Part shown: piece after piece, positions 8,416-9,311 of the stretch
Position numbering within the stretch: the first letter of the stretch is position 1
Layout: each line of letters opens with the position of its first letter
Assembly: GCA_021809305.1 (NCBI GenBank)
Contig: JAKBAF010000001.1
Span: 1-32,373, forward strand
Direction: 5' to 3'
Length of the DNA stretch: 32,373 nt
DNA from: a bacterium
GTDB taxonomy: Bacteria > Chlamydiota > Chlamydiia > Chlamydiales > JAFEGQ01
Notes under the pieces: model-generated
What the model was told of the DNA's origin: nothing
The model's database searches: none
Seen by the model: the letters and a program-made list of their open reading frames with translations, nothing else
Translations under genes and position numbers: made by a program

Positions 8416-8800
8416 TCTTAATGCGCTCATGTTCAGCGAGCTAGCTATAACAATACCAAGATGCCTCTCATCCAACTGCCGATTCGCATTGGCCGCCTTC
8501 TAGGCCTGATTCGAATCTCCCACTGGCGTCCAGTGAAATCATGTGCTCCTCTGTCTCTTGGCATGCCCTACGTTGGCAATTTGACATGGTATCCAGTGAA
8601 TAACTCTGAAAGACGCCTCGAAAGAGGTGGTCGTTGAGATCAAGGCGATCTATGATCAATCTTTGGGCATGTTCTGACGGGACTCTTTCGATAGGATCTT
8701 ATTTTGGCGATGCATAATGGCCTCTCTCCCTATAGCAACGCCAAAAGTGCGCACGATAAGTGCCTCTTACCTAGCACTCCCGAAGGGTGTGCTGGAACTT

Positions 8801-9089
8801 AGCCCCGGGTTAGGGTGTTAATTTTGGGCCAAAACGGGCTATTTATGATCACATATATCTAAATCGTTTTTCCCTGAACGGTGGCCACAGGCGTGGCCAG
8901 AACCAAAGCTGCACAGGAGTGCAGCACTCCATATCGGAATTTGCTGCTAAATTCCTGTGCCTTAAGTTCATATATGGAGTGCGGTACGCCCGTACCGCTT
9001 TGGTTCTGGCCACGCCTGTGGCCATCAGAATCCATGTGATGCTGGAGTCCAAAAAAGGTCACAAAATTAACACCCTAGCCCCGGGTGAG
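8801..9089. repeat. Outer inverted-repeat pair enclosing a structured ~290-nt element
   Basis: 8807-8826 (GGGTTAGGGTGTTAATTTTG) is the reverse complement of 9062-9081 (CAAAATTAACACCCTAGCCC) with one mismatch. CCCGGG cores flank both arms. Confidence 0.8.
8882..9024. repeat. Inner perfect 28-bp inverted repeat with an 87-nt structured spacer
   Basis: 8882-8909 (TGGCCACAGGCGTGGCCAGAACCAAAGC) is the exact reverse complement of 8997-9024. The spacer has further pairings: 8924-8934 with 8972-8982 (11 bp), 8936-8942 with 8949-8955 (7 bp), and the GCGGTACG/CGTACCGC hairpin at 8981-8998. Confidence 0.85.
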
Positions 9090-9252
9090 CAAAGCGTAAC
9101 CCGGGGTGCAAGCAATAATTGTGTGCAACACTATGCCCGAAGTGGGGTGCAGGACTAGTAGATGGTATGAAGAATTCCGGTCGTCTATGCACTAGTTTGG
9201 CACAGATTGAACACCCTAGGCCTGGGTGAGTGAGGCGCCAGCCAAGGTGCAG
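9066..9252. repeat. Two direct copies of a ~45-nt GC-hairpin repeat unit
   Basis: 9066-9112 and 9206-9252 share ATT(G)AACACCCTAG-SCCYGGGTGAG...GGTGCA. Copy 1 forms a 7-bp all-GC stem (9079-9085 with 9100-9106). Copy 2 is a degenerate version. The outer left arm at 8801-8826 is a third copy, inverted. Confidence 0.7.
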
Positions 9253-9311
9253 TAGAATTATAATTGGATGAATTAGGGTCTAGATTGCAAATCCTAAGGA
9301 GAGGCGAGAGA

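Follow-up and report, generated by a model that had tools for sequence, protein, structure and literature searches.

Probable REPIN-type repeats linked to a single RAYT gene and nested with other mobile repeats in a palindromic intergenic array of a chlamydial genome

Which kind of element gives rise to a dense array of nested palindromes between two genes of a chlamydial genome? The question is raised by a stretch of 32,373 nucleotides (positions 1 to 32,373 of contig JAKBAF010000001.1, assembly GCA_021809305.1; hereafter the window), which is part of a metagenome-assembled genome (MAG) of the Parachlamydiales comprising 1.55 Mb in 296 contigs at 71% completeness (the host genome, G000; its contigs are given below with the prefix C). 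A preliminary description, made from the window alone, had noted inverted and direct repeats at 8771-9262 and considered a non-autonomous transposable element, a recombination scar or a long stem-loop RNA. In the analysis presented here, the core of the array (8882-9024) probably belongs to the repetitive extragenic palindromic (REP) elements and their hairpin-forming doublets (REPINs) that accompany REP-associated tyrosine transposases (RAYTs), and it is nested with other mobile repeats. The assignment draws on observations of its anatomy, copy number and stem covariation, on the presence of a RAYT gene adjoined by such repeats, on the co-occurrence of both partners across genomes and, for the layer around the core, on a restored empty site.

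The core was located by nhmmer at 43 loci of the host genome and is therefore decidedly not single-copy, the state that would have refuted the preliminary description. Overlap with any open frame of at least 150 aa is absent at 32 of these loci, while the other 11 overlap stop-to-stop frames, so that the extragenic share is approximate. Eleven of the 43 loci lie at contig ends, and the repeats thus account for much of the fragmentation of the MAG. The 17 full-length copies are 72-98% identical (mean 82%), with one subfamily at 96-98%, and about 20 loci show the inverted doublet layout of the window. In each half of the core, a conserved GGAGTGC tag leads into a 7-bp stem closed by a 4-nt loop, and TTTGG completes this REP unit, behind which a second hairpin (hairpin A) is placed. 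The consensus of the REP unit reads (A/G)TNT-GGAGT-GC[NNN]AC-TCCC-GT[NNN]GC-TTTGG. Perfect REP hairpins with 7-bp stem and 4-nt loop number 40 in the host genome, fall into five stem variants and carry the tag (T)GGAGTGC without exception, and the signature TGGAGTGC-N13-14-GC was matched 53 times, as compared to two matches for a reversed control.

The stems of these units are maintained by compensatory changes. Among 41 distinct REP units, which were picked by their tag rather than by pairing, 95.8% of cells are paired and three of the seven stem pairs are altered on both sides (29 cells); the resulting covariation score was reached by none of 500 shuffles. Within a doublet, the stem variant of one REP unit frequently differs from that of the other, which indicates that the conserved feature is the local hairpin and not a long-range inverted repeat; left and right A hairpins likewise differ in many copies. 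The perfect 28-bp inverted repeat, which had first drawn attention to the locus, is peculiar to the window's copy. No target-site duplication was detected around the core in 16 full-length copies, as the longest direct repeat of the flanks measured 4.4 nt versus 4.35 nt in shuffles. In the host lineage, the GGAGT of the tag complements the sequence ACTCC, to which the stem contributes its last two bases and the loop its first ones (e.g., at 8916-8930 of the window, and in all REP units). Consequently, a 5-bp hairpin (GGAGT-GCNGC-ACTCC) is open to each REP as an alternative fold, and the opposite strand displays the tag as well. The REP loops of relatives do not show this complementarity.

Two genes for Y1 HUH enzymes were identified in the host genome, a RAYT on C11 and an IS200-type TnpA on C4. 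The RAYT gene (C11:155-685) is present as a single copy and encodes a protein of 176 aa with an NHYH form of the HUH motif and the tyrosine motif YVKQNPVKH, which scores 80.2 bits against the NCBIfam model for REP-associated tyrosine transposases (NF047646; cut-off 80). In a comparison with solved structures, a profile of the RAYT clade matched TnpA-REP of E. coli best (4ER8; E = 3e-8), with IS200-type structures at about 0.01. Contig C11 starts inside a repeat, and the upstream side of the gene is covered by a longer contig from ENA. On this contig, units of the core family, namely a tagged REP, hairpin A', hairpin A and central parts, fill the 228 nt that separate the RAYT start from the gene upstream of it. 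By our own estimate, such an adjacency taken alone would be expected by chance in roughly 3-6% of cases.

Comparison across genomes points in the same direction and carries more weight. RAYT homologues with 41-54% identity exist in four other genera of the order, and the signature TGGAGTGC-N13-14-GC was counted in 41 genomes of the order with the reversed pattern as control. The five RAYT-positive genomes (E < 1e-38) occupy ranks 1-4 and 6 with 53, 64, 65, 67 and 16 matches, and the genomes without RAYT have at most 23 and mostly no more than nine (p ~3e-6 by our exact rank-sum count over the 41 genomes). In G012 and in G023 ("Parachlamydiales bacterium SW_13," of the same order as the host), inverted REPs that carry this tag stand on either side of the RAYT gene, for example TTTGGGAGTGC-GGTGC-CTAG-GCACC-GC. 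A scan of one genome per species returned at least 536 RAYT relatives. The best 80, which belong to Acidobacteriota, Planctomycetota, Verrucomicrobiota, Armatimonadota and Parachlamydiales MAGs, were used for an analysis of flanking sequences. GGAGTGC was found 299 times at these 80 loci, as compared to about 31 expected, and in 173 instances it is directly followed by a perfect hairpin (42 different stems). Control 7-mers were followed by a hairpin in none or one case, except for the one-base variant GGACTGC with 15. Hairpins tagged with GGAGTGC lie close to the gene at 60 of the 80 loci. From these counts we conclude that GGAGTGC with its hairpin accompanies this RAYT family throughout the clade and that the core in the window is its local doublet form.

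The core family is probably the cognate repeat of the host's single RAYT gene. From this association we infer that RAYT-driven mobilization is the best-supported mechanism. In this model, for which E. coli TnpA-REP and IS200/IS608 serve as analogues, RAYT would recognize the tag and hairpin on single-stranded DNA and would then cut and rejoin the strand, thereby spreading REP doublets without target-site duplication. We likewise infer, rather than observe, catalysis by RAYT, any current activity and any host role such as termination or mRNA stabilization; the last of these is possible as a secondary function of the REP hairpins.

The core lies in a 973-nt non-coding intergenic region (8416-9388) between convergent genes, and its parts are listed in Table 1 together with the surrounding features. 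All structural features of the preliminary description were reproduced. The 28-bp arm TGGCCACAGGCGTGGCCAGAACCAAAGC (8882-8909) reappears without mismatch at 8997-9024 in reverse complement, and in a repeat search the arms could be lengthened to 61 nt with a complementarity of 85%. The self-complementarity of the spacer was borne out, and the predicted fold includes a GCGGTAC/GTACCGC hairpin. For the RNA of 8875-9030 (156 nt) a folding energy of -104 kcal/mol was obtained, as compared to -50.1 +/- 4.2 in shuffles (z = -12.7), and for the DNA -61 kcal/mol (z = -13.3). The outer inverted repeat pairs 8803-8826 with 9062-9085 (24 nt, 92%), the direct repeat of its arm motif aligns 9060-9110 with 9201-9251 at 75% identity, and the CCCGAAG...GGTG motif of both flanks (8777-8802 and 9134-9158) corresponds to hairpin 1 of a separate repeat family, termed B. 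The open reading frames (ORFs) of the interval are frames of 40-79 aa running through the palindromes, and such repeats call for masking before small-ORF or RNA prediction in the intergenic regions of this MAG.

Table 1. Features of the array and of its surroundings in the window.
Feature	Position	Strand	Details
REPIN core	8882-9024		143 nt; two REP units as inverted doublet, bordered by outer hairpins; 43 loci in host genome (nhmmer)
Outer hairpin A, left	8882-8899	+	TGGCCAC-AGGC-GTGGCCA; stem covaries among copies (GGCCAC, GGGCAC, GCAGCAC variants)
Left REP unit	8903-8934	-	Minus-strand ATAT-GGAGT-GCTGCAC-TCCT-GTGCAGC-TTTGG; stem-loop 8908-8925; GGAGTGC tag 8924-8930
Central spacer	8935-8971		Mini-hairpin GGAATTT-GCTGCT-AAATTCC at 8936-8955
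Right REP unit	8972-9003	+	ATAT-GGAGT-GCGGTAC-GCCC-GTACCGC-TTTGG; stem-loop 8981-8998; same signature flanks RAYT homologues in relatives
Outer hairpin A', right	9007-9024	+	TGGCCAC-GCCT-GTGGCCA
Outer element	8811-9077		267 bp, encloses REPIN; perfect 16-bp terminal inverted repeats 8811-8826 TAGGGTGTTAATTTTG / 9062-9077 CAAAATTAACACCCTA
Family D segment	8661-8772		Low copy; runs into family B unit; matches C164:1599-1731 (91%) and C277 (75%)
Interrupted family B unit, left part	8773-8810	+	Hairpin 1 GCACTCCC-GAA-GGGTGTGC (8774-8792), linker, GCCCCGGGT (8802-8810, duplication copy 1)
Interrupted family B unit, right part	9078-9110	+	GCCCCGGGT (9078-9086, duplication copy 2); about 12 loci in genome
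Family B hairpin 2	9079-9106	+	CCCCGGGT (9079-9086) - GAGCAAAGCGTA - ACCCGGGG (9099-9106)
Family C block	9109-9200	+	B-like hairpin 1 CCC-GAAGT-GGG (9135-9150); matches C240 (91%), C268, C182, C164, C32 and others
Degenerate second module (right terminal repeat plus B hairpin 2)	9201-9251	+	75% identical to 9060-9110
APH-family kinase gene	7489-8415	+	Left neighbor of array
Orphan gene, 810 aa	9389-11821	-	Right neighbor of array
Intrinsic terminator of 810-aa gene	9320-9356	-	17-bp stem and T run; separate from repeats

A contig from an ENA metagenome is identical to the window over 8300-9355, and NCBI assembly GCA_027326685.1 matches it at 99.4% over 8300-9085. Since the locus was assembled independently, the array is not an assembly artifact. 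No presence/absence polymorphism was found in the other assemblies of the locus, one of which is identical, one 99.4% identical with a fold-back end and one too short. The fold-back concerns contig DAHWDX010000200.1 of GCA_027326685.1 (L029, 1960-2023), whose end, once past the outer inverted repeat, runs back along the left flank in reverse complement, an assembly artifact at the palindrome. In a DNA search of 40 relatives, the element was absent save for one 27-nt match at chance level, and no orthologous empty site was found.

As a whole, the array is a mosaic to which at least four repeat families contribute and which can be compared with clusters of bacterial interspersed mosaic elements (BIMEs). 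The REPIN is enclosed by an outer element of 267 bp with perfect terminal inverted repeats (TIRs), which in turn is flanked by a perfect 9-bp direct repeat, GCCCCGGGT (8802-8810 and 9078-9086). Deletion of 8811-9086 restores a gapless two-hairpin family B unit, whose joined flanks agree with C49 at 57 of 59 positions; further intact family B units are found in C277, C289, C273 and C164. This comparison with an empty site is direct evidence that the 267-bp outer element was inserted, with a duplication, into the family B unit. A second full-length copy exists at C8:6961-7225 (74.5%), and partial copies were found in C76, C227, C292, C280, C89 and C31. The C8 copy is centered in a further 16-nt inverted repeat, GAGGCTGTGAAAAAAA / TTTTTTTCACAGCCTC (C8:6945-7245), without target-site duplication. 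An autonomous element with the 16-bp outer terminal repeats was sought in the host genome and none was found. To the right, the block 9079-9218 recurs in C268.

The second Y1 HUH gene of the host, the IS200-type TnpA (C4:7767-8219, 150 aa; NF033573, 78 bits), has structured inverted ends of about 85-120 nt (C4:7640-8345, L001), and about 10 inverted pairs of these ends occur without transposase (C19, C82, C101, C164 and C182), resembling derivatives of the type of palindrome-associated transposable elements (PATEs) or miniature inverted-repeat transposable elements (MITEs). Hairpin 2 of family B, TAGCCCCGGGTGAGCAAAGCGTAACCCGGGGT (9076-9107), resembles an internally deleted end hairpin of this IS200 element, TAGCCCCGCGTGCAGCG...AGCGTAACGTGGGGTA, with a marginal score of 39.5 against a shuffle maximum of 38. 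Elsewhere in the window, positions 16501-16701 belong to a different family of palindromic interspersed repeats, roughly 200 nt long, for which at least 12 loci were counted in the host genome (C13, C18, C270, C279, C234, C274, C75, C102 and others), which fills a hairpin-dense convergent intergenic region. The only other DNA similarity of the window within the genome concerns 4859-5188, 5775-5989 and 7153-7367, which lie in two tandem genes for Na:alanine symporters (4679-6055 and 6069-7442), apparent paralogues.

Several observations weigh against the assignment to a REPIN-RAYT system. The core copies are mostly old, as seen from their mean identity, and the REP family may therefore be largely inactive. 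The host RAYT scores barely at the NCBIfam cut-off and has REPs upstream only, with just a terminator downstream. The doublets carry their tags inward in the host genome and outward in G012 and G023. The tag itself differs from GT[AG]G, the 5' foot that defines the GTAG superfamily (Di Nocera, 2013) and is found in Pseudomonas fluorescens SBW25 and E. coli, as (T)GGAGTGC stands both in all 40 units of the host and in the 173 hairpins beside RAYT homologues. In genome G020, an intact RAYT homologue lacks flanking REPs and the signature is matched only 16 times; conversely, REP-like TGGAGTGC hairpins occur in G016 (10 matches versus none in the control), where no RAYT match was obtained. No transposition event, excision product or polymorphism was seen, and the only other assemblies of the locus also carry the element. 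For the outer element, the window alone shows a clear duplication: it is missing from the C8 copy, the flanks of which are inverted and not direct, and C76 and C227 show 7 of 9 positions only if they represent one locus. As a side note, G016 and G020 may represent possible stages in the loss of one partner.

The outer layer invites the explanation that the whole structure, including the core, is a classical MITE family with TIRs and target-site duplications, which is moved in trans by a DDE transposase and whose shorter copies are decayed or truncated, the link to RAYT being coincidental. The perfect 16-bp TIRs, the perfect 9-bp direct repeat, the restorable empty site and the second full-length copy at C8 would all be expected from such a family. 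However, the terminal repeats are missing at about 40 of the 43 core loci and have just six or seven matches genome-wide, the similarity between copies stops at hairpin boundaries, the core lacks a target-site duplication and no autonomous partner was found in the host genome. Furthermore, the association of GGAGTGC hairpins with RAYT across genomes and phyla is far above chance, and we regard this explanation as very improbable. The preliminary description was thus right to propose a non-autonomous transposable element in kind, given the 43 interspersed core loci and the TIRs, 9-bp duplication and empty site of the outer layer; the core, though, is a REPIN linked to RAYT and without duplication, instead of a classical MITE.

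Alternatively, the array could be a functional structured RNA or a cis-acting RNA module, such as a terminator, a 3' end stabilizer of the converging genes or a family of small RNAs, which is conserved at the RNA level. The very stable fold and the compensatory stem changes are compatible with this, as are the position between convergent genes and the sequence TTTGGTT behind the REP hairpins, which yields weak terminator-like scores on both strands. REPs of E. coli, moreover, influence mRNA stability and termination. Against this stand the occurrence of copies in both orientations, the lack of a promoter-like site in 8300-9500 and the strong terminator that the 810-aa gene possesses on its own (9320-9356). 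No relevant Rfam family was matched by the array even at E values up to 10. Rfam 15 gave no match in the window at the gathering score, and the sub-threshold matches in 8661-9251 were limited to two that fall far short of it, RAGATH-30 with 17 bits as compared to 59.5 and rydB with 13.7 bits as compared to 50, with the remainder falling on the terminator (9307-9429). The conserved tag and hairpin stand beside RAYT genes in different phyla, and this speaks for DNA as the substrate. An RNA-level origin is consequently considered very improbable, and the long stem-loop RNA of the preliminary description gives way to links at the DNA level that explain the conservation. A merely local palindrome or scar of recombination that belongs to no family, or a fold-back artifact of assembly, can practically be dismissed: contig L029 does fold back past the outer inverted repeat in the way assemblers typically do at palindromes, but the 43 genome-wide loci and the independent assembly of the same sequence from other samples contradict these readings. 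The copy number refutes every reading without a family, and the scar once proposed for the core is replaced by a REP doublet linked to a RAYT gene. Readings as CRISPR, integron attC or dif-like sites were dropped solely because copies are dispersed, not arrayed, and because the unit matches RAYT-flanking hairpins.

Among known systems, the outer layer of the array is closest to classical bacterial MITEs with TIRs and target-site duplications, for which the Correia elements of Neisseria are an example. It shares with them its perfect TIRs, 9-bp duplication, lack of coding capacity and low copy number. The likeness is confined to the outer layer, of which just one copy shows a clear duplication; a cognate transposase was not found, and a REPIN lies inside. 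The host genome also resembles IS200/IS605 and PATE systems, as it has an IS200-type TnpA with inverted structured ends, about 10 transposase-less end pairs and a family B hairpin 2 similar to these ends; the REPIN core, however, is unrelated in sequence to the IS200 ends of the host.

With respect to the transposase, the host RAYT agrees with class 2 of TnpA-Y1 proteins in combining Y---NP with NHYH, as do subclasses 2.1, 2.3 and 2.8 (Quentin, 2018; PMC6006769). Unlike subclass 2.1, it is short and lacks a C-terminal helix-turn-helix extension, and motifs alone do not assign a subclass. RAYT-like genes outside Proteobacteria (Acidobacteria, Planctomycetes and others) have been described as TIRtrons/TIRYT and atypical REPtrons, flanked by non-GTAG inverted sequences in moderately abundant families, with GGGGWSAS as the published flank motif of TIRtrons and a CnGA foot in class 3 elements (Di Nocera, 2013, PMC3733652; Quentin, 2018, PMC6006769). 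A text search of these two articles did not return the GGAGTGC tag. Further text searches of the literature revealed neither a GGAGTGC tag with RAYT nor a chlamydial REP/RAYT system, though such absence is no proof of novelty. The expectation that the element is undescribed for this lineage may therefore hold, while the kind of element is well known.

GGAGTGC with its hairpin provides a concrete, testable recognition motif for a poorly characterized RAYT clade, and a non-GTAG tag common to several distant phyla. It is conceivable, at a level we would place somewhat short of probable, that this hairpin is the DNA signal cognate to a RAYT clade that is large, uncatalogued and spread over Acidobacteriota, Planctomycetota, Verrucomicrobiota, Armatimonadota and Chlamydiota. 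It might then join the GTAG and CGTC classes as a third superfamily of REPs, one with a re-targeted guide or cleavage motif, and the system would persist in the small genome of a presumably host-associated chlamydia and build nested palindromes with other elements inserted in REP-type hairpins.

REPIN-RAYT systems, known mostly from Proteobacteria, have been discussed as intragenomic replicators that are inherited vertically and persist for long. Their occurrence in a small-genome environmental chlamydia would widen the host range of the phenomenon. The closest known counterparts of the core are REPIN-RAYT of P. fluorescens SBW25 (Bertels and Rainey, 2011; PMC3116915) and the REP/BIME sequences of E. 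coli with TnpA-REP (4ER8; PMC3479197). The system described here differs from both in having two hairpins per arm, inward tags and REPs on one side of RAYT only, in its host, and in the nuclease role of RAYT, which is predicted here. In common with them, it consists of short palindromes with a conserved 5' tag that form inverted doublets folding as a long hairpin and exist in tens of mostly extragenic copies. As in both counterparts, a single-copy Y1 HUH gene with the Y---NP motif is adjoined by the repeats, there is no target-site duplication and the stems are kept through compensatory changes.

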